This document shows positions 3,861-26,159 of a stretch of DNA of 32,000 nucleotides, in pieces. Position 1 is the stretch's first letter; every line of letters begins with the position of its first letter. The DNA is from Desulfotalea psychrophila LSv54 (lineage in GTDB: Bacteria > Desulfobacterota > Desulfobulbia > Desulfobulbales > Desulfocapsaceae): NCBI RefSeq assembly GCF_000025945.1, contig NC_006138.1, positions 2,010,001 to 2,042,000 on the forward strand, given 5' to 3'. Under the pieces are notes generated by a model. That model made no database searches and had not been told where the DNA came from. It worked only from the letters and a program-made list of their open reading frames with translations. The position numbers were made by a program, and so were the translations under genes.

Positions 3861-5024
3861 TTAATGGTTAAATACTAACAGTATTTGCATTCCCTTGCCG
3901 GCGAAGCTGTTGTTTGTTGCCTGATCCTGCGAGGTCAGTGGTTGCTCGGGATTGGAGAAGAGACTCACGTTTAACTGCCATTCATCATAGGTTCGCTGCC
4001 AGGTGATAAATGGTGACCAATAACTTTCCTGCCAGTCATAGTAGTTAATGGCCACCAGGGTATCGAGGATACCAAGGGGGTAGGTAACTGACAGTGCTGA
4101 GATGGCCTGTCTTTTTTCGTTGCCGAAGGATTTCTTTGACCATCTCCCTTCAAGATGTTCGCCAAGGACATGTAGGCCGTTACCAAGGTCAAAGGTGTAG
4201 TCCATCCCCACGGTTAAAAGTCTCTGATAGGGCAGTTCCACTGCCTCCAGATCCTGACGAGTCAGGCTGGCTTCAAACCAGAGACCTGCGCCCAGATCCC
4301 ATTTTCCATCAAGTCCTAAACGATCTTCTGCAAAGATGGGGAGTGTCTGTCCTGTGGTCTGGGAGAAAAAATCTTTGCCATTTACCCATCTATGATCATA
4401 GGAGAGAGCTATTTCACCGGCGAGGAGAGTGAGCTGGGCTCGTCCGCCATATTCAACCCGCCTCTTCTCCGTGGGCATGGTCTCCCAGCCCTTCAGGTCA
4501 TGGTTGCCGTAGAGCAACCAGAGCCAGATATTGGCATTGTTAGGGAAATAGTATCTGCCCAGTAGGCCATAGACCCCATCGGTCAGCTGCTGAGGGTCGC
4601 GTGGATCAAGGGTGTCGAACCAGCGCAGGGGTCTGAGCAGGGTGGCCGAGCCGAAGCTGATTTTCTGCAGACCTGCGCGCAACTCGTATTGGTTGGCTGC
4701 AAAGCGCAACCAGAGGCGGTAGGGATCTAGGGTAGCATCCTCCTGACTGCCCCCGCCCAGATGCTTTGCCCACTGGGCATTGATCGCAGCCTCCGCACTG
4801 AGTTTATAGTTCTCTGTAAGTGCCTTCTGCCAGGAGAGTTCAGGGATGTATTGCATCCCGAATTGGCTACTATTCTCGCTCGCTATGAGCCAGGTCGATG
4901 CCTGACCGGAGAAATCAACTGTCCCGGCCTGGGCTATTTGGTTCCAGGCAAGGAGTAGGGTGCTGACCAGAAGCCAGCCAAGGGCTTTTCCTTTAAAAGG
5001 ATATCGTTGAAATAGGGTGGACAT
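3861..5024 (-). CDS. Secreted protein, predicted outer-membrane beta-barrel (uncharacterised)
   Basis: I prefer the internal ATG at 5022-5024 (MSTLFQRYPFKGKALGWLLVSTLLLAWNQIAQA = signal peptide), which is preceded by AGGTGA 5 nt upstream. The tracked ORF start at 5075 has no RBS. The mature part is rich in alternating aromatic/polar beta-strand-like stretches (YGLLGRYYF, IWLWLLYGN, LTVGMDYTFDL). It is the first gene of the ABC cluster. I cannot name its family. Confidence 0.55.
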   Translation of the reverse strand: MSTLFQRYPFKGKALGWLLVSTLLLAWNQIAQAGTVDFSGQASTWLIASENSSQFGMQYIPELSWQKALTENYKLSAEAAINAQWAKHLGGGSQEDATLDPYRLWLRFAANQYELRAGLQKISFGSATLLRPLRWFDTLDPRDPQQLTDGVYGLLGRYYFPNNANIWLWLLYGNHDLKGWETMPTEKRRVEYGGRAQLTLLAGEIALSYDHRWVNGKDFFSQTTGQTLPIFAEDRLGLDGKWDLGAGLWFEASLTRQDLEAVELPYQRLLTVGMDYTFDLGNGLHVLGEHLEGRWSKKSFGNEKRQAISALSVTYPLGILDTLVAINYYDWQESYWSPFITWQRTYDEWQLNVSLFSNPEQPLTSQDQATNNSFAGKGMQILLVFNH

Positions 5025-5277
5025 TGATTCACCTGTTGCATCTTGACGGAGATCATGGTGGCAGATCATCTCCAACCTTGCCGCGAATATTTTGAAGGGC
5101 TACTCTAAGCCTATCTTTTCTGAATTAATAGAACAAGTGCGACCCTGCTATGAGCTGGCAGAGAGGAGGAAAAAGAGGCGGGTGGAAGGATGAATCTGGT
5201 AGGTCGAGCCCGTCGGCTATTGATCACGTCGGGATAAGAAGCTGGTCTGGCCCTGTTCTCTCGCTGCCCTCTGCTCT

Positions 5278-6198
5278 TTATTTTGGCATCTGGTTTGAAT
5301 CAGCCATCACTGTTCCGTCAAATAGTTCAGGATATTTTTCTTTCATACAGGATGGGCAAATTCCATGGCTGAACTTTGCTTCGGAATGGTCTGAAATGAA
5401 CTTTTCCAGTTGATTCCAATAGCCCCGGTCGTCCCTGATCTCTTTGCAGTGCATGCAGATGGGGATTATTCCGCTCAGGCTCTTGACCTCAGCCAGAGCA
5501 TCTGTAAGTTCATTGACGGTTCTCAGTAGTTTTTTTCTGGAGAGTGTCAGCTCTGTTTCCAGGCGCTGACTGTTGAGCATGATCCAGCTAATGCCAATCC
5601 CAACCTCATAGATGGTGAGTTCTAAAAAATAGAGCTGATGGCTGCTTCCGGCGTTAAGAAGTCTCTCCTCTGGAGCGAGGAACCATGAGGCCGCACGGGT
5701 GATTATAAAGAGGGCGTCAATGAGATAGAGTGAGGCGATCGCTGTGTGTAGATTTTTGTTTTCCTTCGTTTTGCTTCTGTAAAATTGCCTACTGATCATG
5801 ATGGCAAATGCTGTTATGGGAATAGAGAAAAACAGGCTGCGTAGTACGATGTCATTTTTGCTGAGAGATAAATAGGCGAAGATAGGGAGCGCTATAAGAG
5901 GCAGGCAGTAGTAGCGTCGTTTAAGTCTCTGGTTATGGGTAAATTGTCGGGCAGCATCAAGACGGAGCACCGCGGTAAGAAAGAATAAGAAGTTCGGTAA
6001 AATGGAGCTGAGCCAAAGCGGTATCTGTCCCCGAAGTATCATGGGGATATAGGCAAGTGCTGCAAGGAAAATGGAGAGGAGGAGGGCCTCATAGCCGGAA
6101 TAGGTTTTATAGTTCAGTCTGTAAAAGAGCAGGGCGAAGGCCATAAAGAAGGCTATTCCCATATTGCAGACCATGAGTGTTTTTATATCTAAAGCCAT
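5278..6198 (-). CDS. 7-TM receptor fused to a coiled coil and a C-terminal Cys4 'IRDDxGYW / FSHGICPxC' module
   Basis: About seven hydrophobic helices occupy the first 210 aa or so. A coiled coil follows (SQRLETELTLSRKKLLRTVNELTDALAEVKSL). The C-terminus is IPICMHCKEIRDDRGYWNQLEKFISDHSEAKFSHGICPSCMKEKYPE (CxxC...CxxC). No kinase, GGDEF, EAL, HD-GYP or DNA-binding motif is visible. Confidence 0.75.
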   Translation of the reverse strand: MALDIKTLMVCNMGIAFFMAFALLFYRLNYKTYSGYEALLLSIFLAALAYIPMILRGQIPLWLSSILPNFLFFLTAVLRLDAARQFTHNQRLKRRYYCLPLIALPIFAYLSLSKNDIVLRSLFFSIPITAFAIMISRQFYRSKTKENKNLHTAIASLYLIDALFIITRAASWFLAPEERLLNAGSSHQLYFLELTIYEVGIGISWIMLNSQRLETELTLSRKKLLRTVNELTDALAEVKSLSGIIPICMHCKEIRDDRGYWNQLEKFISDHSEAKFSHGICPSCMKEKYPELFDGTVMADSNQMPK

Positions 6199-7254: not shown

Positions 7255-7827
7255 TCAGCCCTTGTCACTCTTCCACGAGTTCCACTCTTTTTTGCTTAAT
7301 TTGCCATCTTTATTTGCATCAGCTTCACGGATAATGCGCTCGGCATTTAATGGATAACTGGTTGTGATCTCTGAGCGCATAATGGTCTGGTCGCCATCCT
7401 TGTCTATTGCTACGAAGCCCTTGGCAAAGCGAACTCTCTCCATCTGATAGTATATTGCGGTTCTTTTTTTGCCACTTTCCAGATAGTAGATAGACATGGT
7501 CTGTGGGCTTGTGAATTGTCCTCTGGCAAAGCCTTCCATCTCTGCAAAGTAAAGACTGGTGCCATCGACACCGATAACGCCGGAGAAAGCTTCTTTGACA
7601 ACAGAGCTTTTTTTGCCGAACCAGAGTTTTTCTCCTGAAAAGAGGGGCCCTTCCTGCTTATTGATAACAAAGACAGCCTTTCCTGTCTTGGTCTCCCCTT
7701 TTGGATTCAGTTTTGTCGCCATACCACCCCATGTACCCCGTACCTCCGGGTAGTTGGTCGCAAAAACGGCAGAACCGAGAAAAAACTGACATAGAACAAT
7801 GATACCGATGATCTTTTTCATAGACAC
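7255..7827 (-). CDS. Secreted protein with C-terminal EF-hand pair (Ca2+-binding type)
   Basis: The signal peptide is MSMKKIIGIIVLCQFFLGSAVFA. Two EF-hand-like loops are present, DKDGDQTIMRSE and DANKDGKLSKKE. A GGAGAG RBS lies 6 nt upstream. Confidence 0.75.
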   Translation of the reverse strand: MSMKKIIGIIVLCQFFLGSAVFATNYPEVRGTWGGMATKLNPKGETKTGKAVFVINKQEGPLFSGEKLWFGKKSSVVKEAFSGVIGVDGTSLYFAEMEGFARGQFTSPQTMSIYYLESGKKRTAIYYQMERVRFAKGFVAIDKDGDQTIMRSEITTSYPLNAERIIREADANKDGKLSKKEWNSWKSDKG

Positions 7828-8014: not shown

Positions 8015-9034
8015 TCAGGGCAATGTTTCAGCTAACATTGGCAGGTCAATAGCTGAGCGCCAACAGTTTCTTCCTGCATTTTTGGCCGCATAGAGGCGGG
8101 CATCGGCCACGCTTAGGAGGGTATTCAACTCAATATCTGCCTTGGGGATAACAGAGGAGACGCCAAGGCTAATTGTCAGTAATCCCTGTGGCTTATTGCG
8201 GGGATGGCTCACCTGAAGCCCGAGGACCTCATTTCTCATTCTTTCAGCTACATGTTCAGCCCCCTTTAGATCAGTATCGGGAAGAATAACAACAAACTCT
8301 TCTCCACCATAACGGGCAACCCTGTCCACGTGTCTCTTGACCGATTTGCATAGAGCATTGGCCACGGCCTTGAGGGCATTATCCCCGACAAGATGGCCAA
8401 AGCTATCGTTATATGCCTTGAAATTATCAACATCAATTAACAAAAGAGAGAGCTCTGAACCCAGGCGAAGGCTTCGCTGTAACTCCTCCTGGTATATCTC
8501 ATCGAAATATCTCCTGTTTAACAGGCCGGTCAAGCCATCCCGGGTTGACAGGAGGGTGAGCTGTTCATTTGTCTCCTCCAACTGTTGCTGGAGCTCTTCA
8601 AGCTCACAGAGACGATTGTCAAGTTCGATAGATTTTTTTTCAAGTTCTTCCTTGTGTTGATATAATTCAAGGAAAACTCCAATCTTACCCTTGAGAATAA
8701 CGGGTTCCAGTGGTTTGAAAAGATAGTCCACAGCTCCTGAATCATAACCTTTGAATATTTGTGCCTTTTCTTTATGTTCGGCGGTCACAAATATTATGGG
8801 AATGTTTTTGGTGTTTTTGTTGCACCGCATAAGTTCAGCTACCTCGTAGCCATCCATCCCTGGCATCTGTACATCGAGGAGAACAAGGGCAAAATCATGG
8901 TCAAGGGTTGCAGCCAGGGCCGCATTCCCTGAGGTGGCCTTGACTAGTTCTATCTCTGCATTGTCGATAAGTGATTCCAGGACCAAGAGGTTTTCCGGCC
9001 TGTCATCAACTATAAGAATTTTTATCTGTGTCAT
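8015..9034 (-). CDS. Response regulator with GGDEF output (diguanylate cyclase)
   Basis: The REC domain is visible (ILIVDDRPENL...LLDVQMPGMDGYEV...FKP). A coiled coil links it to a GGDEF domain with the active-site motif RYGGEEF. An RxxD I-site (RHVD) lies 5 residues upstream of that motif. Confidence 0.92.
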   Translation of the reverse strand: MTQIKILIVDDRPENLLVLESLIDNAEIELVKATSGNAALAATLDHDFALVLLDVQMPGMDGYEVAELMRCNKNTKNIPIIFVTAEHKEKAQIFKGYDSGAVDYLFKPLEPVILKGKIGVFLELYQHKEELEKKSIELDNRLCELEELQQQLEETNEQLTLLSTRDGLTGLLNRRYFDEIYQEELQRSLRLGSELSLLLIDVDNFKAYNDSFGHLVGDNALKAVANALCKSVKRHVDRVARYGGEEFVVILPDTDLKGAEHVAERMRNEVLGLQVSHPRNKPQGLLTISLGVSSVIPKADIELNTLLSVADARLYAAKNAGRNCWRSAIDLPMLAETLP

Positions 9035-9037
9035 TTT

Positions 9038-9610
9038 TTACTTTAGGGAGTCAATAAATTTCAAAAAAGGGGCAATTTCTTCAAGGATCAGGATATGGTC
9101 TGCATTGGTTTTTGCCAAGGCCGCCCGGGGCATTATATCGATAGCCGCTGTTTCCGGGGACTGGACAATGGTAAGCCCCCCATTTTTATAAATATCATTC
9201 AGGCCTGCAGCTCCGTCAGAATTGGCGCCAGTGAGAATGATACCTATGAGCTCGTCGCAGTAGGCGGCGGCAGCCGTTTGAAACAGACGGTCTATTGAGG
9301 GTCGGGAAAAATTCACCCGTTCATCCGCAGACAGGGCAATCGTCCGTTCCTCTTCGAGCAAAAGATGATAGTTCGGTGGGGCAAAATAGATAGTTCCCGG
9401 AGCAATAGGCTCCTTGTCATGAGCCTCTACCACGGTCAGCGAGCAGCACTCCTTGAAGAGGGGCACTAAATAGCTCTCTGGTTCATTGCCGATATGCTGA
9501 ACAATCAGGATGGGTGTTTGGAAATCTGCTTCTAGCTGTGATAATATCTGCTTTAGAGCATGAATGCCACCGGCCGAAGCACCTATAACAATTGCACTAT
9601 ACCTCTTCAT
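9038..9610 (-). CDS. cheB: CheB-type protein-glutamate methylesterase, catalytic domain only (no receiver domain)
   Basis: 190 aa. The Ser-His-Asp context is conserved (IGASAGG, LIVQHI, LTGANSDG). The ORF starts directly at the catalytic domain. Its stop lies 3 nt before the ATG of the GGDEF regulator. Confidence 0.85.
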   Translation of the reverse strand: MKRYSAIVIGASAGGIHALKQILSQLEADFQTPILIVQHIGNEPESYLVPLFKECCSLTVVEAHDKEPIAPGTIYFAPPNYHLLLEEERTIALSADERVNFSRPSIDRLFQTAAAAYCDELIGIILTGANSDGAAGLNDIYKNGGLTIVQSPETAAIDIMPRAALAKTNADHILILEEIAPFLKFIDSLK

Positions 9611-9624
9611 GGGTAGCGATCTTC

Positions 9625-10470
9625 CTAGGGCTTTAAACGTCTTTTGCGGTATATTTTTTCTCGGCCGGCCACTGCCTCAAAACTATCTGCTATCTTTGAA
9701 AATTGTATGCTCTCTTTTGATCCCAAACAGAGAAAACCACCCGGGCAGAGACTGTCGCAAAACAGCTGTAACACCTTTTCCTGCAGGTCTCGGTTAAAGT
9801 AGATCAACACATTTCGACAAAAAATAACATGCATTTCACCGAAAATGCCATCGGATACCAAATTATGGGAAGAAAATAGAACACGTTCTCTCAGGGAGCT
9901 TCTCAGTATCACATTGCTGTCATCGGCTGTATAGTAATCTGAAAAGTCATTTTTACCGCCGGATTTTATATAGTTAGAGGTGTACTCTCGTGCTACATCA
10001 AGGGGGTAGATGCCTTTGCGAGCTTTTTTGAGAATAAGTTCATTGAAATCAGTTGCATAGGTCTGGCTTCTTCTCTTCATGTCCTCCTCTTCCAGAAGAA
10101 TCGCCATTGAGTATACCTCCTGTCCGGCGGAACAGCCTGCATGCCAAATTTTGATGAAGGGATAGGTCAGCAAATGGGGGACAACAATATCTCTTACCGC
10201 CTTGTAAAACCAAGGATCTCTGAACATTTCCGTGACGTTAATCGAGAGATCTATCAGTAATTTTTTAAAGAACTCTTCCTCGTAGATAAGCTTATGCTGC
10301 ATCTCGGAAAAAGTTGTAAGGCCTGACAAAAGACGTCGGTGTTCCAGGCGTCTCTTGGTATGTGTGCCTGCATAATCCCGAAAATCATAACCATACTTTT
10401 GAAAAACAGCCTCGAGAAGCAGGGTGATTTCCAAGCGCTCATTTTCTATTTTTTCAGACGAGACACTCAT
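9625..10470 (-). CDS. cheR: CheR-type protein-glutamate O-methyltransferase
   Basis: I prefer the ATG at 10468-10470 (MSVSSEKIENERLEITLLLEAVFQKYGYDFRDY...), 1 nt after the kinase stop codon (10472-10474). The N-terminal 28 aa of the tracked ORF overlap the kinase and look non-coding. The SAM-binding signature IWHAGCSAGQEVYSMAILL and the downstream FCRNVLIYF motif are present. Confidence 0.87.
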   Translation of the reverse strand: MSVSSEKIENERLEITLLLEAVFQKYGYDFRDYAGTHTKRRLEHRRLLSGLTTFSEMQHKLIYEEEFFKKLLIDLSINVTEMFRDPWFYKAVRDIVVPHLLTYPFIKIWHAGCSAGQEVYSMAILLEEEDMKRRSQTYATDFNELILKKARKGIYPLDVAREYTSNYIKSGGKNDFSDYYTADDSNVILRSSLRERVLFSSHNLVSDGIFGEMHVIFCRNVLIYFNRDLQEKVLQLFCDSLCPGGFLCLGSKESIQFSKIADSFEAVAGREKIYRKRRLKP

Positions 10471-10471
10471 A

Positions 10472-13400
10472 TCAGTACAACCATACCCGCAACATTGAGA
10501 TGAGCTTGTCAGCATCCACAGGCTTGGCCAAATAATCACTGGCTCCGGCCTCAATACACTTACTTCGATCGCCCTTCATGGCCTTTGCGGTTAAGGCTAT
10601 TATGGGTAATTTTTTGTGCTGTATATTTTTGCGGATCTCCTGCATAGCCTCATAGCCATCCATTCGTGGCATCATTATATCCATTAAAACAGCATCAAAA
10701 TGGTCCTGCTCCTTTAATTTCTCAAGGCACTCAATACCGTCTCTTGCCACAACGATATTAATACCTCGTTCCTCTAGAACACTAGAAAGGGCAAAGACAT
10801 TGCGCATATCATCGTCAACAAGGAGGATCTTTCGACCTTTTAAAACAGCCTCCTTGTTGTGAATAAGCTTAAGCATCTGCTGTTTTTCTTCGGGTAAGTC
10901 TGCCTCGACCCTATGCAGAAAAAGGGCTGATTCGTCCAGCAGTCTCTCCGGTGACTTTACGCCTTTGACAATAATCGTTTCAGCATATTTATTGAGCTGT
11001 GCCTCTTCGGTTTGGGTAAGATCACGGCCCGTATAGATAATAATAGGAAGCCTGTAGAGAGATTCGCTTTGTCTGATTTTCTCCAGGAGTTCAAAGCCAG
11101 ACATATCTCCCAGGCCAAGATCAAGAATCATGCAATCATAGCGTTCTCTGTTCAGCTCAAGGATTGCTCCTGCCCCGGAATCAACGGCGGTGGTTTTAAC
11201 ATCAGAATTACCAATTAACTCTATGATGCTCTCACGTTGAATCTTGTCATCTTCCACAAGGAGTAGTCGCTTTACCGATCTTGAGATGACGTTTTCAAGC
11301 TTTGCTAAGGTCTCTTCGACTTTTTCCATGGATACAGGCTTTGTTAGGTAGCCGATGGCTCCCATGCGCATGGCATCCATGGAGCTGTCGGAGGCGGACA
11401 TAAAGTGAACCGGAATATGACGCAGTTTCGAATTATCCTTGAGACGCTCCATAACTGTCCAGCCATCAATACCTGGCAGGCCAATATCAAGTATTATGGC
11501 ACTGGGGGTATAATGATCTGCCAGAGCTAAGCCTGTTTCTCCGTCACTTGCCAAAATACAGGCAAAGCCACGATCCCTGCCTATATCCCGAAGTACCCGT
11601 GAAAAGTTTTCGTCATCTTCAATGATGAGCAGACTTTTGCTGTCACTGTTTATCTGCCCTCTATCGTCCTCTATGTCAACAGATGCTTTATTGGTTATAG
11701 GGCAAATAGTCTCTTCTTTAGAGGGGGGCGTTTTTTTAATTTCTTTGCGAGCAGGCTGTTTCTCGCCGTCTTCAGTTTCAAGCTTTTCCTCAGGGGTATC
11801 TGTTGCAATAGCCTGGTTGTTCAGAGGTAGTGTTATCCTAAAGGTGCTTCCTTCATCCTCAACAGAGCTGAGGGTGATAAAACCGCCCAACAGTTTAGTC
11901 AGCTCCTTGGATATGGAGAGTCCAAGTCCCGTTCCTCCGTATTTCCTGCTGGTGGAGCCATCTACCTGTTGGAAGGCTTCAAAGATATTTTGCTGCTGTG
12001 CCTGCGGTATGCCAATGCCATCATCTTTAACAGCAAAAACAATGGCCTTCTGTCCCTCAAGTCTTGTGTTCAGGAGTTGCTCTGCCGGAGCTGGCTCGAT
12101 TTCCAGGGAGACAGAGCCTTGCAGGGTAAACTTAAAGGAGTTTGTTATCAGATTACGTAGTACCTGCTGTAATCTCTGCGAATCTGTTTTTAGGGTCTGT
12201 GGTAACTGGGGGTTGAGAGTGATATCAAAGGATATACCTTTGTCGTGGGCCAGATCCTTATACAGCCTGTGCAGGTCAGCTTCAATTCGCTTGAAGGGAA
12301 TTTCTTCAATTATCAGCTCAACCTTACCCGCCTCCACCTTTGACAGATCAAGAATATCATTGATCAGGTTGAGTAACTCTGCCCCGGAGGAGTGGATTGC
12401 CCCTGCCGATTCAACCTGTTTATCGCTGAGGTTGCCTGCTTTATTGGTCGAAAGCAGTTGGGATAAGATAAGTATACTGTTAAGGGGCGTTCGGAGCTCA
12501 TGGGACATATTTGCCAGGAATTCTGACTTATATTTGCCGGATGTTTCCAGCTCGTCAACTTTTCCTTCGACAATCTTTTGGGCATCCAGCAGTTCAATGT
12601 TCTTGGTAGAAATTTCTTTTCTCTGTTTTTCCAGTGCCCCGGTTCTTTGCTGGAGTTCCTCGTTGGCAACCCGTAACTCCTCCTGTTGGGCCTGAAGTTC
12701 TGCCTCAGATTGCTTTAAGGCGCGGGTCTGTTCTTCAAGCTCCTCATTGGTAATCCGTAACTCTTCCTGTTGGGCTTGGAGCTCTGTCTCCGACTCTTTA
12801 AGGGCCCTTGCCTGGCTTCCCAGTGCCCTGTTAGAGGATGCCAGTTCTCGTTGTTGCTCCTGGGATTGGTCAAGAAGCGTAGCTATGCGCATTCTTGATT
12901 GGGCAGCATTGAGAATTACAGCAAGATTAGCAGAGCTTTGCTCAATAAAATCTCTCTGTATTTTTGTAAACCTGTTAATGGAGGCAAAGAGTATTACCCC
13001 GACAATATCACCCTCTATGGCGAGAGGCGCTGCAACGAAATAGCCGGGGATTTCTTCACCAATACCATAATTAATAGCAGGGGCATCCTCGACCAGGTTC
13101 GAGAAAGAGAGGAGCTCATTTTCTAAAGCTGCCTGGCCCACTAGGCCTTCACCGAATTTAAAGGTGCTGAAGTTGCCCTTTCTGTCGGAAAAGGCATAGG
13201 AGGAGCGTAGCTCTAGTATGTGGCCATCGTTGAGGTAAATCGCTCCCATGGCAATATTCATATGTTTAACAAAAAAGCGTATGGCTCTTTTGCTCAATTC
13301 ATCGAGGGCTAGGTCTCCGCGCAGGTCGTTGTCAAGAGATTCTCGTCCCGACTTCATCCAGTCAATCTTTTGCAGTTTTTCTGACATATTGTTCAGTGAA

Positions 13401-14548
13401 GCTGCCAGGGTGCCAAGCTCATCATTTCGTTCTATCTCAAGTCTTTCTCCGAGTTTGCCATGGGAGATATTATTGGCAAATTCAATTTCGGCAATAATAG
13501 GACGGGTGAAATTTCTTGAGAGTAACCAGGCAATAATACTTATAAAAAAGATACATACTACAACAACAAGGCCGAACTTTTTGTAAATTGCCCGGATTGG
13601 CGCAGTGATCTCATGGTTGTCAATTTTTGATATTAAATACCAGTCCAGCCCATCTATTTCGAGCAGGTTATAGGCTACAAGTACCTCTGTATCGGCGCTG
13701 TCGCTACACATACTGTGTCCGCCTGCCAGGCCAGCTTTCTCTGCATCAGCCCAGTAACTGAGGTTCTTGGTAAAGGTATAGCCGACAACAAATTTACCAT
13801 CCCCCATTGTTCTCAGGTTACTGCGTAATTCAAATTTACCAGTTTGATCTTGTGGGGTAATTATATATGATTCTCCTGTCTCCCCCATTCCGCGAGTAGA
13901 TTCAATAATCTGGGAGATGAAATCTGCGCTAAACCGTATCAGGATAACGCCTATTTTATGGTTATCCTCTCCAAAAACAGGATAGCCTATGAAGGCCATT
14001 TGCTTGCTACTATCATGGAAAAAAGGTTCGAAATCGGTGATCACAGTCCCCTCTGCGCCCAAGGCCTTCCGCCATGTTTTGGCCAGAACGGTGTCCTTGT
14101 ATTGGCGACTATCCAGCCGCTTCCATACGACTGCTTTTGTGTTCAGGGAAAATAAAACATCACCATGCTCCGCATCAATCAGATAGATATCTTCGTAATT
14201 ATAGCGCTTGGTATAGTTTGCCAGGTGTTCAGTAATGCCCTGAATTTTTTTACTAAAGGTAGCAAGTCCTTCGGGTTGACTGTGGTATTTCTTTAGAGCG
14301 GTGAAGGTGTTATACGTATCTTTGGAACTGGCAAAGACCTGAATGGCGGCAAGATCATTTACGAAATGATCTTCTATCTGGTCTCTGTGGATGTCTTGTA
14401 TTGATAAGAGCTTATTCGTTGCCTCTTGTACCAGAGAGGTTTCGGTCCATTGGCTGTATAAAAAGCCAATAATAATCAGGGGAAGAACCCCAGTTAAAAG
14501 AAAAAGAAACTGTAGCTTTAATCTAATTGGAACATTACTCAAGTGCAC
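10472..14548 (-). CDS. Hybrid sensor histidine kinase: TM-Cache-like periplasmic domain-TM-HAMP-GAF-long coiled coil-HisKA-HATPase-REC-REC-REC
   Basis: 1358 aa.
- Two TM helices flank a periplasmic region of about 300 aa with Cache-like strings (YEDIYLIDAEHGDVLFS; GESYIITPQDQTG).
- A HAMP domain follows TM2, then a GAF-like domain (GEGLVGQAALE...).
- The H-box is FLANMSHELRTPLNSI, and the N/G boxes are RNLITNSFKFT and DDGIGI...GGTGLGLSISK.
- Three receiver domains each keep the acceptor Asp and Lys context (ILDIGLPGIDG..TKP; ILDLGLGDMSG..VKG; LMDIMMPRMDG..AKP).
- The start is GTG at 14546-14548, with GGGGAAG just upstream. A TTG two codons later is an alternative start. Confidence 0.92.
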   Translation of the reverse strand: MHLSNVPIRLKLQFLFLLTGVLPLIIIGFLYSQWTETSLVQEATNKLLSIQDIHRDQIEDHFVNDLAAIQVFASSKDTYNTFTALKKYHSQPEGLATFSKKIQGITEHLANYTKRYNYEDIYLIDAEHGDVLFSLNTKAVVWKRLDSRQYKDTVLAKTWRKALGAEGTVITDFEPFFHDSSKQMAFIGYPVFGEDNHKIGVILIRFSADFISQIIESTRGMGETGESYIITPQDQTGKFELRSNLRTMGDGKFVVGYTFTKNLSYWADAEKAGLAGGHSMCSDSADTEVLVAYNLLEIDGLDWYLISKIDNHEITAPIRAIYKKFGLVVVVCIFFISIIAWLLSRNFTRPIIAEIEFANNISHGKLGERLEIERNDELGTLAASLNNMSEKLQKIDWMKSGRESLDNDLRGDLALDELSKRAIRFFVKHMNIAMGAIYLNDGHILELRSSYAFSDRKGNFSTFKFGEGLVGQAALENELLSFSNLVEDAPAINYGIGEEIPGYFVAAPLAIEGDIVGVILFASINRFTKIQRDFIEQSSANLAVILNAAQSRMRIATLLDQSQEQQRELASSNRALGSQARALKESETELQAQQEELRITNEELEEQTRALKQSEAELQAQQEELRVANEELQQRTGALEKQRKEISTKNIELLDAQKIVEGKVDELETSGKYKSEFLANMSHELRTPLNSILILSQLLSTNKAGNLSDKQVESAGAIHSSGAELLNLINDILDLSKVEAGKVELIIEEIPFKRIEADLHRLYKDLAHDKGISFDITLNPQLPQTLKTDSQRLQQVLRNLITNSFKFTLQGSVSLEIEPAPAEQLLNTRLEGQKAIVFAVKDDGIGIPQAQQQNIFEAFQQVDGSTSRKYGGTGLGLSISKELTKLLGGFITLSSVEDEGSTFRITLPLNNQAIATDTPEEKLETEDGEKQPARKEIKKTPPSKEETICPITNKASVDIEDDRGQINSDSKSLLIIEDDENFSRVLRDIGRDRGFACILASDGETGLALADHYTPSAIILDIGLPGIDGWTVMERLKDNSKLRHIPVHFMSASDSSMDAMRMGAIGYLTKPVSMEKVEETLAKLENVISRSVKRLLLVEDDKIQRESIIELIGNSDVKTTAVDSGAGAILELNRERYDCMILDLGLGDMSGFELLEKIRQSESLYRLPIIIYTGRDLTQTEEAQLNKYAETIIVKGVKSPERLLDESALFLHRVEADLPEEKQQMLKLIHNKEAVLKGRKILLVDDDMRNVFALSSVLEERGINIVVARDGIECLEKLKEQDHFDAVLMDIMMPRMDGYEAMQEIRKNIQHKKLPIIALTAKAMKGDRSKCIEAGASDYLAKPVDADKLISMLRVWLY
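12638..12805. repeat. Tandem 84-bp (28-aa) duplication inside the kinase coiled coil
   Basis: Unit 1 (12722-12805) encodes ALKESETELQAQQEELRITNEELEEQTR. Unit 2 (12638-12721) encodes ALKQSEAELQAQQEELRVANEELQQRTG. 20 of 28 residues are identical, the two units are in frame, and a third unit begins (ALEKQ...). By eye the DNA units match at roughly three quarters of positions. Confidence 0.85.
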
Positions 14549-14736: not shown

Positions 14737-14774
14737 AAAAAAAAGCCCTTAACTCAAAGAAGAGCTAAGGGCTT
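14737..14774 (-). terminator. Rho-independent terminator after tRNA-Phe
   Basis: The minus-strand transcript reads AAGCCCUUAgcucuucuuugaguUAAGGGCUU followed by UUUUUUUU. That is a 9-bp stem plus an 8-U tract, starting 20 nt past the tRNA 3' end. Confidence 0.75.
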
Positions 14775-14793
14775 AATATCTTTTACCAATGAA

Positions 14794-14869
<76 letters not shown>

Positions 14870-14933: not shown

Positions 14934-15773
14934 TTATTTCTTTTTATGCAGGGATAAGCCGCCCAAATCCAAGTCAAAATCAAGGTCGGCGTTCATATTG
15001 ACGCTACCATCGGGATTTAGGGAGTTGTTCGCTTTTCTGTCTACTGCTCCGGAGGAATCAGTGTCCGATGTTATATCATCGGCAAAGAGTGTATCCAGAT
15101 CCAGATCGTCTAAATCAAAACTTGCATGCCCATTGGACGGGGCTGGCTCTGAGGAGGACTCATCAAATGCTATCTCTTCATCAAGGTCAAAAAAGTCGTC
15201 CTCGGCCTCACCATTACCTGTGTAGTCCGGTTCAAGAAGGTCGTCGAGCTCTGTCAGACCGTCGGATGGTGGTGTCTCCATGTCTTGCGCAGGCCTTGTC
15301 TCTTCATCTGCAAAAAAGCCTTCGCTATCAGGGGGCAGATCAAATTCGTCGTCTGCCTTGCTATCGTCCTCATCCTCTCTTGCGGGGGGCTCTGGCTGCC
15401 CTTCTTCTGTCGATGCTTCGCTGGGCATTTCTGGCAATAAAAAATCAAAGTCAATCTCTTCATCCTCATCATCGAGGGGGAAGAGATCATCGTCAGTTTT
15501 ATCGGTGAGAAGAATATCAAGCTCGCTATCTACAGCCTCTTCGTTAAGAGCTCCGTTCTCGGCAGGAGAGTCATTGTTGGAGGCGTCGTCGGAGGCGTCG
15601 TCGGAGGTATCGTCGGAGGTATCGTCGGAGGTATCTACCTGTAAAAAAGTGGGGCTGGCGGCGTTGAATGTTCCGCCGCTAGCAGCAATGACTTCGTTGG
15701 AGAAATCTTTTTGACACTGTTTACAAGAGGTCAAATGATCAAATGAAATATACCCACACTTAGGACAACGCAT
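14934..15773 (-). CDS. Zinc-ribbon protein with a very long acidic low-complexity tail
   Basis: I prefer the ATG at 15771-15773 (MRCPKCGYISFDHLTSCKQCQKDF = CxxC-x10-CxxC), which has a GGAG-containing RBS (AGAGGAGA) about 4-5 nt upstream. About 250 aa dominated by D/E/S/T/P follow, with recurring [DE]-F-D-[LF]-type motifs (EIDFDFLL, DEFDLPP, DFFDLDEE, ASFDLDDLDLDTLF, DLDFDLDLGGLSL). The C-terminus is basic (HKKK). Confidence 0.7.
   Translation of the reverse strand: MRCPKCGYISFDHLTSCKQCQKDFSNEVIAASGGTFNAASPTFLQVDTSDDTSDDTSDDASDDASNNDSPAENGALNEEAVDSELDILLTDKTDDDLFPLDDEDEEIDFDFLLPEMPSEASTEEGQPEPPAREDEDDSKADDEFDLPPDSEGFFADEETRPAQDMETPPSDGLTELDDLLEPDYTGNGEAEDDFFDLDEEIAFDESSSEPAPSNGHASFDLDDLDLDTLFADDITSDTDSSGAVDRKANNSLNPDGSVNMNADLDFDLDLGGLSLHKKK
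15579..15635. repeat. 12-bp tandem repeat, about 4.75 copies, in frame within the acidic protein gene
   Basis: The plus strand reads GGAGGCGTCGTC GGAGGCGTCGTC GGAGGTATCGTC GGAGGTATCGTC GGAGGTATC. On the coding strand this encodes DDTS-DDTS-DDTS-DDAS-DDAS. Confidence 0.9.
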
Positions 15774-15819
15774 AAAATCTCCTCTTGAAAAAACAGACAT
15801 GCCCATGATCATTAGATGA

Positions 15820-23913: not shown

Positions 23914-24495
23914 TTATTTTTTTCCTTCACATTCTGGGCAAATGGTTTTTATAAAACGATCTTCACCATTTTTTTCTATAAGTTCAAGGTAGTCATGCCA
24001 TGTTCCCTCGTCAATATCTTCAATTTTGTGGCATTTTTCGCAGACGGTGAGGCTGTCCTGCAGGGTGTCGAGTTGATTGATGGCATTTTTTAATTCAGTG
24101 ACGGTGGAGGCAAGCATGTCCTGACTGCGAACAAGGCGATCGGCAACACGTACTCTGGCCCGCAATTCATCACTGTTAAAGGGTTTGGTGATATAGTCAT
24201 CGGCGCCGGCATCAAAACCAAGCAGTATATCATTTTTGCTGCCGTGAGCGGTTAGCAGTATAATATATGGAGGGTTTTCGCTCTCCTGTTCCCTCAGCCT
24301 TTTGCATACTTCCAGTCCATCAACTTCGGGCATTTCCCAGTCAATTATGGCAATCCTAGGTGCCTCTCCACGACCAAAAAGCTCCATGGCCTCTTTTCCA
24401 TCCTTAGCTTCCAGAACGTCGTAGCCCCAATTTTCTAAACTTACCTGCACCATTAGTCTTGTTACAAGTTCATCTTCTGCCACAAGCACTTTCAT
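23914..24495 (-). CDS. Response regulator: REC + coiled coil + divergent CxxC...CxxC tail
   Basis: I prefer the ATG at 24493-24495 (MKVLVAEDELVTRL...), with an AAGGTGA RBS 7 nt upstream. The REC motifs are IIDWEMPEVDG and ITKPF. The C-terminus is VCEKCHKIEDIDEGTWHDYLELIEKNGEDRFIKTICPECEGKK. Confidence 0.8.
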   Translation of the reverse strand: MKVLVAEDELVTRLMVQVSLENWGYDVLEAKDGKEAMELFGRGEAPRIAIIDWEMPEVDGLEVCKRLREQESENPPYIILLTAHGSKNDILLGFDAGADDYITKPFNSDELRARVRVADRLVRSQDMLASTVTELKNAINQLDTLQDSLTVCEKCHKIEDIDEGTWHDYLELIEKNGEDRFIKTICPECEGKK

Positions 24496-24821
24496 AGTCG
24501 TCACCTTGTCGTTAAATAAAAAATAATATCCACCATACAATACAGAAGACCTTACAGTAAAAAGGTTCTATTGTTCCATGTTTTTTTGCTGAGGCCTATT
24601 TATCTTCATAGACTAAGAGTAGGTCTGGTAAGCCCTGTTCTCTTCCCCCAAAAGATGGGAAAATGGGGTAGGGGAAAAATATATATTTTTAAATTCAGTT
24701 GAATAGCGGTTAATTTTTTTGCTACCCTTAGCTTACAGTAGAATGCATTTTTCAGGATTTGACCATCCGCAATAGATAGGGAGGATGGAGCAAACCAACC
24801 TTTCACCTTGGTACATTTTTT

Positions 24822-26159
24822 ATGAAAACCTTTTGTATAAAAAAAGGTCTTAATATTCCCATTAAAGGTGTTGCTGGGCCGCAAATACGGCAGGGAAAAG
24901 TTGTAGATAAAATAGCTTTGATTGCCGATGATTATGTTGGCCTGAGGCCAACTATGAAGGTTGAGGTTGGTGATAAGGTTATCTGCGGTCAACTTCTCTT
25001 TACCGATAAGCAAACGCCCGGTATTCGCTTCACCGCCCCGGCAGCAGGCACGATCAGCGCAATTAACAGGGGGGGGAAACGTAAATTTCTCTCTCTGGTG
25101 ATTGATCTCGCCAAGGATCTTGCCTGTACATTTCTTCACCCTGAAGATGTTTATACGTCTGAAAGTATTGGTGATATTCTTATTCAGTCTGGACTGTGGA
25201 CATGCTTTCGGACCCGGCCCTATGGCAAGATTCCCGGCATAGAGACAAGCCCCCATTCACTTTTTATTACGGCAAGTGATAGTGCACCTCTGGCTCCCTT
25301 GCCCCAGAGCATTATCGCTGAATACAGCGATGAGTATAGTGAGGGACTCAGGCAGCTTCGGGCATATTTCTCCTGTCCCATATATTACTGTACCAATCAG
25401 GAGGCGTTGCTCCCCGCCGAGGAACTGGAGGGGCTTGATTACAACTGTTTTCTGGGGCCTCATCCGGCAGGACTTGCCTCGACTCATATTCATTTTCTTG
25501 ACTCCGCCAGCGAAGATAAGACCGTCTGGAATATATCCTATCAGGATGTTATTTCCATTGGTTATCTCTTTCGTACGGGCCGCCTGATGACAGAGAGGAT
25601 CATTGCCATTACCGGTCCGTCAGCTCGTCAGCCCTCTCTTCTGCGCACCCATATAGGGGCCGATATTCATCAACTCTGCCGTGATGAGGGGTCAGGGGCC
25701 GGGGTGCGAACCATCTCCGGCTCTGTCCTTGCGGGCCGACAGGTAACAGATGAAGAACACTTTTTAGGCCGTTACCACAATCAAATATGTATGCTCGAGG
25801 AGAGTGCGGACAGATCACCTTTTAATTGGGCAATGCCGGGTAGAGATAAATTTTCCGCTCGGCCCATTTTCGCCTCCCTCTTCTCTAAGGGCAAGACGTT
25901 TTCAATGAAGACAGCACTCTATGGAGGTTTTCGGGCAATTTATCCTCTGGGCAGCCATGAGCAGGTCATGCCTCTTGATATCCTGGCGACCCCATTTTTG
26001 CAGGCCATATCAAATCATAATACCAGTAAGGCAAAGGATCTCGGTTGTCTGGAACTGATAGAAGAAGATCTAGCGCTCTGTAGCTTTGTTTGCCCGGGAA
26101 AAAACGAATTTGCTAGTGTTCTTCGTGGCGTATTGGCTAGCATAGAACAGGGCGATTAA
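24822..26159 (+). CDS. nqrA: Na+-translocating NADH:quinone oxidoreductase subunit A
   Basis: 445 aa. The N-terminus IKKGLNIPIKG is typical of NqrA, and this is the first gene of a colinear nqrABCDEF set. No Shine-Dalgarno sequence lies near the ATG. Confidence 0.88.
   Translation: MKTFCIKKGLNIPIKGVAGPQIRQGKVVDKIALIADDYVGLRPTMKVEVGDKVICGQLLFTDKQTPGIRFTAPAAGTISAINRGGKRKFLSLVIDLAKDLACTFLHPEDVYTSESIGDILIQSGLWTCFRTRPYGKIPGIETSPHSLFITASDSAPLAPLPQSIIAEYSDEYSEGLRQLRAYFSCPIYYCTNQEALLPAEELEGLDYNCFLGPHPAGLASTHIHFLDSASEDKTVWNISYQDVISIGYLFRTGRLMTERIIAITGPSARQPSLLRTHIGADIHQLCRDEGSGAGVRTISGSVLAGRQVTDEEHFLGRYHNQICMLEESADRSPFNWAMPGRDKFSARPIFASLFSKGKTFSMKTALYGGFRAIYPLGSHEQVMPLDILATPFLQAISNHNTSKAKDLGCLELIEEDLALCSFVCPGKNEFASVLRGVLASIEQGD

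Follow-up and report, generated by a model that had tools for sequence, protein, structure and literature searches.

The window analyzed in this study, a 32-kb stretch of the Desulfotalea psychrophila LSv54 genome, contains four co-directional genes arranged head to tail on the reverse strand between positions 8015 and 14548. Based on their open reading frames (ORFs) and on Pfam, which was used for the domain assignments of all window proteins, these genes encode, in this order, a hybrid sensor histidine kinase, a CheR-type methyltransferase, a CheB-type methylesterase, and a response regulator combining a receiver (REC) with a GGDEF domain. The profile searches thereby confirm the identity that a preliminary description of the locus had assigned to each of the four proteins, including a CheB without a receiver. 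The genes are packed almost without gaps. Reading the junctions showed that a single base (t) separates the TGA stop codon of the kinase gene (10474-10472) from the ATG of cheR (10470-10468), that a 14-nt spacer leads from the cheR stop codon TAG (9627-9625) to the cheB ATG at 9610, and that 3 nt (AAA) lie between the cheB stop codon TAA (9040-9038) and the ATG of the REC-GGDEF gene at 9034, which ends at 8015. All of these coordinates and spacings agree with those described before.

The kinase gene (10472..14548, reverse strand, as are all positions given for this protein) starts with GTG and encodes 1358 amino acids. Its product consists of a transmembrane segment, a Cache-like periplasmic domain, a second transmembrane segment, HAMP, GAF, a coiled coil, HisKA, HATPase_c, and three REC domains. 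The Cache-like sensor lies between the two hydrophobic segments (residues about 93-307; 13628..14272) and matches dCache_1 with 41.2 bits, just under the cutoff of 45 bits. HAMP (residues 343-393) and GAF (GAF_2, residues 414-546) follow at 12911..13522, HisKA (residues 674-741, with His683 in the motif SHELRTPL) and HATPase_c (residues 789-910) at 11819..12529, and the three Response_reg domains (Asp1021, Asp1143, and Asp1290), the last of which spans residues 1241-1353, at 10490..11638. No HPt domain is present in the kinase.

The second gene encodes a CheR-type protein-glutamate O-methyltransferase of 281 amino acids if translation starts at the ATG at 10470 (9625..10470, reverse strand; CheR_N and CheR, E 1e-39). 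The protein aligns with the CheR structures of B. subtilis, P. aeruginosa, and Salmonella in the PDB, and the motifs for binding S-adenosylmethionine (SAM) are kept. With 58-77% identity to relatives in distant phyla, it belongs to a very tight subfamily. The database model of this gene is longer, with 309 amino acids from a TTG start at 10554 and an 83-nt overlap with the kinase gene. Because CheR orthologues mostly measure 274-299 amino acids, with a few longer ORF calls, and because the ATG at 10470 is found 1 nt past the kinase stop codon, the annotated start is probably too far upstream. The cheB gene (9038..9610, reverse strand) encodes a methylesterase/deamidase of 190 amino acids that consists of the catalytic domain only: CheB_methylest (E 1e-57) is the sole Pfam domain, and no N-terminal receiver was detected. 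Its catalytic triad is formed by Ser12 (GASAGG), His39 (VQHIG), and Asp132 (NSDGAAG), and all three motifs are conserved in an alignment with the structures 3SFT, 6YMZ, 1CHD, and 1A2O. Judged by these alignments, the catalytic residues of the enzymes are intact. The CheB orthologues in the 80 related loci described below have about 188-250 amino acids, and none carries a REC domain.

The fourth gene (8015..9034, reverse strand) encodes a WspR-like response regulator/diguanylate cyclase of 339 amino acids (Response_reg and GGDEF, E 4e-47), which matches the WspR structure 3BRE over its full length (E 3e-60). All features of a WspR-type cyclase are found: a REC domain (Asp54), a coiled-coil stalk, a GGDEF domain with a GG[DE]EF motif (GGEEF, residues 243-247), and an RxxD I-site (RHVD, residues 234-237) five residues before it. 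Both motifs, on which the preliminary description had based its view of an active-looking cyclase with an I-site, are kept in the orthologues. The stalk ELEELQQQLEETNEQL (residues about 132-168; 8530-8640, reverse strand) superficially resembles a repeat in the kinase to which we return below.

Partner proteins typical of chemosensory pathways are absent: among the sizeable ORFs of the whole 32 kb, Pfam detected no MCPsignal domain of a methyl-accepting chemotaxis protein (MCP), no CheW, and no CheA-type protein (Hpt-P3-HATPase-CheW-like), which bears out what had been noted for the four-gene module itself.

To place this arrangement in a wider context, we scanned one genome per species and obtained at least 577 CheR relatives. 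The best 80 loci were taken with 10-kb flanks, and their ORFs were annotated by phmmer with the window's own domains as well as with MCP and CheW probes. A coiled-coil kinase is encoded directly upstream of cheR in 58 of the 64 testable loci, or in 61 if three split or over-extended ORFs are counted. Directly downstream of cheR, 69-70 of 75 loci carry cheB, five of the 75 lack an adjacent copy, and a REC-GGDEF gene comes next after cheB in 54 of 72 loci. An MCP gene was found within 10 kb in three of the 80 loci, never adjacent. CheW was found in none of the 80, with a probe that was an approximate query without any positive match, so that the firm evidence comes from scanning the window with Pfam. 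The loci stem from about ten phyla and include Desulfobacterota, Vibrio/Photobacterium/Shewanella/Ferrimonas, Rhodospirillales, Spirochaetes, Clostridia, Bacteroidota, Acidobacteria, Omnitrophota, and an anammox planctomycete. Instead of the coiled-coil kinase, the Moduliflexus/UASB14 loci have a following REC-PAS-GAF-PAS kinase that lacks the EEL repeat described below. The same gene order in most of the 80 loci and in many phyla puts the arrangement far beyond chance. The cheR/cheB pairs sit next to a kinase and not next to MCP, CheA, or CheW genes, and the adjacency is not a peculiarity of one lineage. The core formed by kinase, CheR, and CheB is a cassette that is deeply conserved and horizontally mobile and whose outputs are interchangeable.

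The variable part of this cassette is the position after cheB. In 18 of 72 loci, the cyclase is replaced by unrelated REC proteins, and the proteins encoded in this slot comprise REC-GGDEF, REC-GGDEF-HD (HD_5), REC-(PAS)-HisKA-HATPase, REC-HWE kinase, REC-PP2C, and REC with a Cys-rich domain. Since the output gene can be swapped while the kinase and CheR, usually together with CheB, remain constant, the kinase is the likely partner of CheR. Bacteroidota loci contain an extra gene for a REC-PAS-HK-REC-REC protein upstream of the kinase. A Mesorhizobium plasmid locus (L082) with genes for a CHASE3-GAF kinase, CheR, CheB, and a REC-HWE kinase represents a proteobacterial CHASE3 variant.

The Cys-rich domain (…PIC.xCKxIRDDxGYW…FSHGICPxC…), which has no Pfam match, forms the output of the REC protein after cheB in anammox and Desulfocapsa-type loci (L055, 11506-12171; L077, 11429-12058; L079, 6026-6679). 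It also forms the C-terminus of a multi-transmembrane protein of 306 amino acids in the window (5278-6198, reverse strand), and a small REC protein (23914-24540, reverse strand) ends with a related tail. It accordingly looks like the Cys-rich domain is an uncharacterized signaling output domain.

Upstream, the module is bounded by a tRNA-Phe gene (14794-14869) and an intrinsic terminator with a 13-bp stem and a T-run (14774-14743; together 14743..14869, reverse strand), which is separated from the kinase start by an untranslated gap of 194 nt. A gene for an EF-hand protein (7255-7827, Pfam) forms the downstream flank, so that both flanks are those named earlier. The flanking genes of the window (EF-hand, hemerythrin, membrane protein, nadC, and valS) are not conserved in the related loci and are therefore not part of the module, which supports the earlier notion of a self-contained unit.

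Between the GAF domain and the H-box, the kinase contains two copies of a 28-residue repeat, SEAELQAQQEELRVTNEELEEQTRALK, which is near-invariant across phyla. The two four-heptad units span residues 585-640 (12629..12796, reverse strand): unit 1, residues 585-612, reads ESETELQAQQEELRITNEELEEQTRALK, and unit 2, residues 613-640, reads QSEAELQAQQEELRVANEELQQRTGALE. We regard them as signaling-helix (S-helix) repeats on the basis of their sequence, their conservation, and their register with the S-helix of RsbK-type kinases. Leu occupies every seventh position from 590 to 639, so that a single register spans both units. If Leu marks heptad position d, the Glu-Glu pairs would be placed at exposed b/c positions. 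The best candidates for methyl-accepting residues are E596, E603, E624, and E631, in each case the latter Glu of an EEL pair, and Q593/Q594 and Q621/Q622 are possible deamidation sites. In MCPs, the second Glu of a pair is likewise the modified one.

An alignment of 66 orthologues gives the consensus LQAQQEELRVTNEELEE(Q/R)T in two to three copies, almost letter-perfect from Clostridia to Vibrio. To compare the repeat with the rest of the protein, we scored identity to the window residue in 28-residue bins of a full-length alignment of 61 orthologous kinases. The two repeat bins reach 0.78 and 0.70, and their conservation is matched only by the H-box (0.94 for its bin), the G-boxes, and the receiver active sites. 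GAF is at about 0.4, and the Cache-like sensor is the least conserved part of the kinase (0.1-0.45). Conservation on a par with catalytic boxes would be unusual for a purely structural linker but is in line with a surface read by two enzymes. A HMMER search with a 71-residue kinase segment against 1.84 billion representative proteins (E ≤ 1e-3, clusters at 50% identity) identified 606 protein clusters carrying the repeat. The best 150 of these are all HAMP-GAF-coiled-coil-HisKA kinases, mostly hybrids, and no MCP or CheB/CheR fusion is among them. Judged by these best 150 of 606 clusters, the repeat is specific to the HAMP-GAF-coiled-coil kinase family.

A kinase with its own methyltransferase has a precedent in Bacillus. 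RsbK of B. cereus is a hybrid kinase with the order CHASE3-HAMP-GAF-S-helix-HK-REC, and its neighbor gene, rsbM, codes for a CheR-type methyltransferase without a paired esterase (PMC4574943). RsbM methylates the S-helix of RsbK in vitro, as shown with 14C-SAM, and methylation represses signaling and holds sigma-B off (PMC4574943, with reference to Chen et al. 2012; PMC12848376; PMC10950880). The authors count 127 RsbK-like kinases in 10 phyla (PMC4574943), and, according to PMC12848376, de Been and colleagues had already noted the association between RsbK and CheR (compare PMC10950880). The preliminary description had started from the premise that CheR and CheB only act on receptor-type coiled coils, and it knew of no mechanistic study of CheB-CheR-PAS-kinase fusions. 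The former is wrong, given the methylation of a hybrid kinase by RsbM, and the latter does not hold for the split architecture (PMC4574943).

For a direct comparison, we searched a plasmid collection by tblastn with the window CheR and thereby found a 5.5-Mb Bacillus record (L081). This record (NZ_CP093325.1, "plasmid p1" in PLSDB) evidently represents a chromosome that was entered as a plasmid, and it carries almost no annotation in PLSDB. It shows the layout of the B. cereus sigB cluster, with genes for a STAS protein (RsbV), an anti-sigma kinase (RsbW), a sigma factor, a ferritin-like protein, and a REC-PP2C protein (RsbY); the divergent arm encodes an 896-residue CHASE3-HAMP-GAF-HK-REC kinase followed by CheR (rsbK-rsbM). 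The residues D827, D782/D783, T857, and M829 of this kinase coincide with those reported for RsbK, so that the published numbering carries over (PMC4574943). By BLASTP, the window kinase is collinear with it from HAMP to REC (34% identity over 759 amino acids, E 7e-118), and its last REC (residues 1241-1353) shares 55% identity with the only REC, an inhibitory one, of the Bacillus protein. The two CheR proteins share 50% identity over 275 amino acids. The S-helix of the Bacillus kinase reads TE431E432LQVQSE438E439LQTQAE445E446LQMQAE452E453LRTTNE459Q460L. Methylation of RsbK was reportedly located by Chen et al. in 2012 at E439 (major) and E446 (minor), and each of the two forms the second Glu in its EEL pair, with the pairs spaced by heptads. 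The BLASTP alignment puts them in register with E596/E603 in repeat 1 and E624/E631 in repeat 2 of the window kinase, which we take to be the counterparts of the RsbK sites, provided that the reported positions are right.

The window resembles the RsbK-RsbM-RsbY system in the domain order of the kinase, the adjacent RsbM-homologous CheR, an S-helix with heptad-spaced EEL pairs, and a REC-containing output partner. There are also clear differences. The sensor is Cache-like in the window kinase but CHASE3 in RsbK, three receivers stand against one, and the S-helix is composed of two 28-residue repeats, whereas that of RsbK is a run of Q-x-E-E-L-Q-x heptads. The window encodes a dedicated receiver-less CheB, which is lacking next to B. 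cereus RsbM (PMC4574943). Finally, the output is a diguanylate cyclase and not a REC-PP2C phosphatase such as RsbY, which acts on a partner-switching cascade controlling sigma-B. Because the output differs and is the very part that varies between loci, the window belongs to a broader kinase-methyltransferase family rather than to the sigma-B pathway. The kinase, named as the obvious substrate from the outset, is indeed the best candidate, based on a near-invariant repeat whose heptad-spaced Glu-Glu pairs are in register with the RsbK-type S-helix. From sequence and by analogy, the idea of the kinase as substrate is well supported, and the RsbK/RsbM precedent means that it is not new.

A relative with a cyclic di-GMP (c-di-GMP) output has been studied genetically in P. 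putida. In the cfcABCDE cluster, CfcA is a CHASE3/GAF hybrid kinase, CfcB (CheR3) and CfcC (CheB3) form a CheR/CheB pair, and CfcD is a REC protein (PMC4951495). CfcA is needed, via His496, for c-di-GMP synthesis by the orphan REC-GGDEF-EAL protein CfcR, and in P. resinovorans the genes of CfcA and CfcR are adjacent (PMC4951495; PMC6849547). According to PMC4951495, which cites Garcia-Fontana 2013 on this point, it was excluded that CfcB and CfcC take part in chemotaxis. Measured against the layout that PMC4951495 describes, the window shows the same order of hybrid GAF kinase, CheR, CheB, and REC protein. Judged by the published descriptions, it also shares the principle of a kinase that controls a REC-GGDEF-type cyclase and thereby c-di-GMP and biofilm formation. 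The Cfc system differs in that CfcR is encoded elsewhere and has an additional EAL domain, in its CHASE3 sensor, and in another response regulator within the cluster. By analogy, cfcABCDE may be regarded as a genetically studied relative of the window cassette with a c-di-GMP output.

The same logic is known from the Wsp system of Pseudomonas (WspA-F and WspR), in which a methylatable sensor, CheR (WspC), and CheB (WspF) are combined with a REC-GGDEF output, to which the window cyclase is homologous. The window, however, lacks the MCP (WspA), CheW (WspB/D), and the CheA-type kinase (WspE) of such Che/Wsp-type pathways and contains a HisKA hybrid kinase instead, and its CheB is devoid of the receiver present in WspF. 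The enzyme families, the intact catalytic residues, and the heptad-spaced Glu-Glu pairs on a coiled coil are also shared with canonical chemotaxis adaptation. Here, in contrast, the target would be the two-stranded parallel S-helix of a kinase and not the antiparallel four-helix bundle of an MCP, and there is neither CheA-driven phosphorylation of CheB nor a CheW/CheA array.

CheB-CheR fusions with PAS_10 and kinase domains are another example of CheB and CheR outside chemosensory clusters and linked to two-component kinases, but these proteins unite the two enzymes in a fusion, and their kinases belong to another family, which is PAS-rich and lacks HAMP-GAF. An approximate heptad query (…NEELQSTNEELETSKEEL…) matched only short fragments named "CheB/CheR fusion protein" (JGI), some with PAS_10. 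The fragments carry an N-E-E-L heptad coiled-coil motif next to PAS_10 that, as far as this approximate query can tell, is loosely similar to the window repeat. The earlier suggestion that the operon is the split version of such fusions was not upheld, as no fusion occurs among the best 150 of the 606 repeat-bearing clusters. With the repeat confined to HAMP-GAF kinases in this set, the resemblance is an analogy only, and the fusions represent a parallel solution.

The order of the genes, their domains, the intact catalytic residues, the deep synteny, the conservation of the repeat, and the homology to RsbK/RsbM were all directly observed. On these grounds, from sequence comparison and analogy, we consider it likely that the four genes form a methylatable hybrid kinase module of the RsbK/RsbM (Cfc) type that has c-di-GMP as its output. 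We infer the following course of events, including methyl transfer to the window kinase, its sites, the sign of its effect, and adaptation. According to the domain order, the Cache-like domain, and possibly GAF as well, would set the conformation of the long parallel coiled coil, which leads into the DHp/CA kinase core. His683 would be autophosphorylated and the phosphate passed to Asp54 of the WspR-like REC-GGDEF protein, whose GGEEF site would then make c-di-GMP subject to product inhibition through RxxD. The three receivers of the kinase itself may act as internal sinks or inhibitors. The presumably co-transcribed CheR, using SAM, would methyl-esterify Glu residues in the two S-helix repeats, with E596, E603, E624, and E631 as the best candidates, and CheB, lacking a receiver and hence constitutively competent, would strip the methyl groups again and may deamidate the neighboring Gln-Gln pairs. 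The methylation level would bias the on/off equilibrium of the kinase and thereby autophosphorylation and transfer to the cyclase. By analogy to RsbK, the kinase is probably kept off by methylation, which would also favor docking of its C-terminal receiver on the S-helix/DHp region (PMC4574943). Because CheB has no receiver, feedback would have to come from conformation-dependent access to the sites or from REC docking on the methylated helix and not from CheB phosphorylation. The module could thus be seen as a Wsp-like pathway collapsed into a two-component system, with the hybrid kinase as sensor, methyl-acceptor, and kinase in place of MCP, CheW, and CheA, and it may provide methylation-based adaptation.

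Several observations weigh against this model. E/Q interchange is typical of MCP methylation sites, but as a signature of CheB-dependent deamidation it is essentially absent from the 66 S-helices, with a single change from QQ to QE (L003). The Gln and Glu positions are almost invariant, and Gln-Gln is kept even where cheB is missing (L052, L054, and L057). The repeat fits the consensus of E. coli MCP sites only in part (EE-x-x-V-T versus EE-x-x-A-S/T). Three loci (L063, L073, and L076) contain close CheR relatives without a coiled-coil kinase, two of them (L073 and L076) together with CheB. As the kinase has no HPt domain, direct His-to-Asp phosphotransfer to the cyclase is an assumption. The terminator scan found no terminator-like site in the 187 nt between the REC-GGDEF stop codon and the EF-hand gene and thus no clear 3′ end of the operon transcript. 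The biochemically studied member of the family, RsbK/RsbM, is the one without an esterase (PMC4574943). In P. putida, the other cfc mutants (cfcB-E) keep the high-c-di-GMP colony phenotype according to unpublished data in PMC4951495, which would make CheR and CheB modulators at most.

Methylation could also be real but static, along the lines suggested for RsbK of B. cereus: a brake holding the kinase off as long as no stimulus is present, with CheB only resetting or maturing the sites, through deamidation of Gln-Gln and slow turnover, and no stimulus-dependent feedback. The constitutive repression by methylation in B. cereus, which operates without a paired esterase, would fit such a scheme (PMC4574943), as would the missing receiver of the window CheB, the part that provides feedback in chemotaxis, and the five of 75 loci that manage without an adjacent cheB. 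We nevertheless regard a static brake as unlikely, since cheB has stayed beside cheR in 70 of 75 loci from different phyla, which implies selection for reversibility. A receiver on CheB is also not strictly needed: in E. coli chemotaxis, adaptation also works via conformation-dependent accessibility of the sites.

Alternatively, CheR and CheB might act in trans on ordinary chemoreceptors encoded elsewhere in the genome, and their position next to the kinase would reflect co-regulation, for example, a coupling of chemotaxis adaptation to c-di-GMP. Both proteins do score as bona fide members of the CheR and CheB families, and three of the 80 loci have an MCP gene within 10 kb. This explanation is hard to reconcile with the strict kinase synteny in about ten phyla, with no CheW in any locus and without conserved flanks, or with a family that includes RsbM, which methylates its own kinase (PMC4574943). 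The CfcB/CfcC pair has no role in chemotaxis, at least as PMC4951495 reports it from Garcia-Fontana 2013, and a CheB without a receiver could not be controlled by CheA; taken together, we consider action in trans very improbable. We give even less credence to a substrate other than the kinase, be it the coiled-coil stalk in the WspR-like cyclase or a different protein. The superficial likeness of the stalk to the kinase repeat speaks for the cyclase, but the motif is that of a generic WspR stalk (3BRE) and varies in Clostridia and other lineages, so that the stalk was rejected as a conserved methylation target; moreover, in 18 of 72 loci, unrelated REC proteins take the place of the output gene, with kinase, CheR, and CheB retained. 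An accidental or lineage-specific adjacency without any functional link has next to no chance of being true and is refuted by synteny, given genes that overlap or nearly abut in the same order and on the same strand in most of the 80 loci and in many phyla.

Elsewhere in the window lie genes for an ABC/FtsX transporter, hemerythrin, NadC, ValS, an HD hydrolase, a redoxin, enolase, TauE, the small REC protein mentioned above, and the Na+-NQR operon. The three ORFs that follow have no Pfam match. A protein of 292 amino acids encoded between tRNA-Phe and nadC (14934-15812, reverse strand) has an N-terminal zinc-ribbon-like CxxC…CxxC motif and a very acidic body with DDTS/DDAS repeats. The second ORF comprises 404 amino acids (3861-5075, reverse strand). 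The third, with 216 amino acids (24606-25256, reverse strand), lies opposite the start region of nqrA, which it overlaps, and is perhaps no gene at all.

The architecture of the window module is already known in kind from the methylatable hybrid kinases of the RsbK/RsbM and Cfc type and is widespread, and the central idea of a methylated kinase is probably right. New are the breadth of the cassette and the delimitation of a 56-residue segment with four candidate Glu residues. The literature so far has covered either the methyltransferase half only (RsbK/RsbM) or the kinase-cyclase half only (CfcA/CfcR). To our knowledge, the demethylation half of such kinase modules has never been demonstrated in any organism, and the esterase-containing version found in the window is the one in which reversibility and adaptation become testable.

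Methylation-based adaptation is regarded as a hallmark of chemosensory arrays. We tentatively propose, as a possibility that falls somewhat short of even chances, that the near-invariant 28-residue repeat is a portable "methylation cassette" which, together with CheR and a receiver-less CheB, gives a two-component kinase reversible, chemotaxis-like adaptation. If so, feedback would arise purely from site access that depends on conformation or from the kinase's own receiver docking, and an adaptation mechanism outside chemosensory arrays would be widespread, with at least 606 kinase clusters at 50% identity. A classical histidine kinase with its own methylation sites would mean that chemosensory logic has been attached to two-component signaling. 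In D. psychrophila, this methylation logic would control c-di-GMP and thereby, probably, the decision between biofilm and planktonic life.

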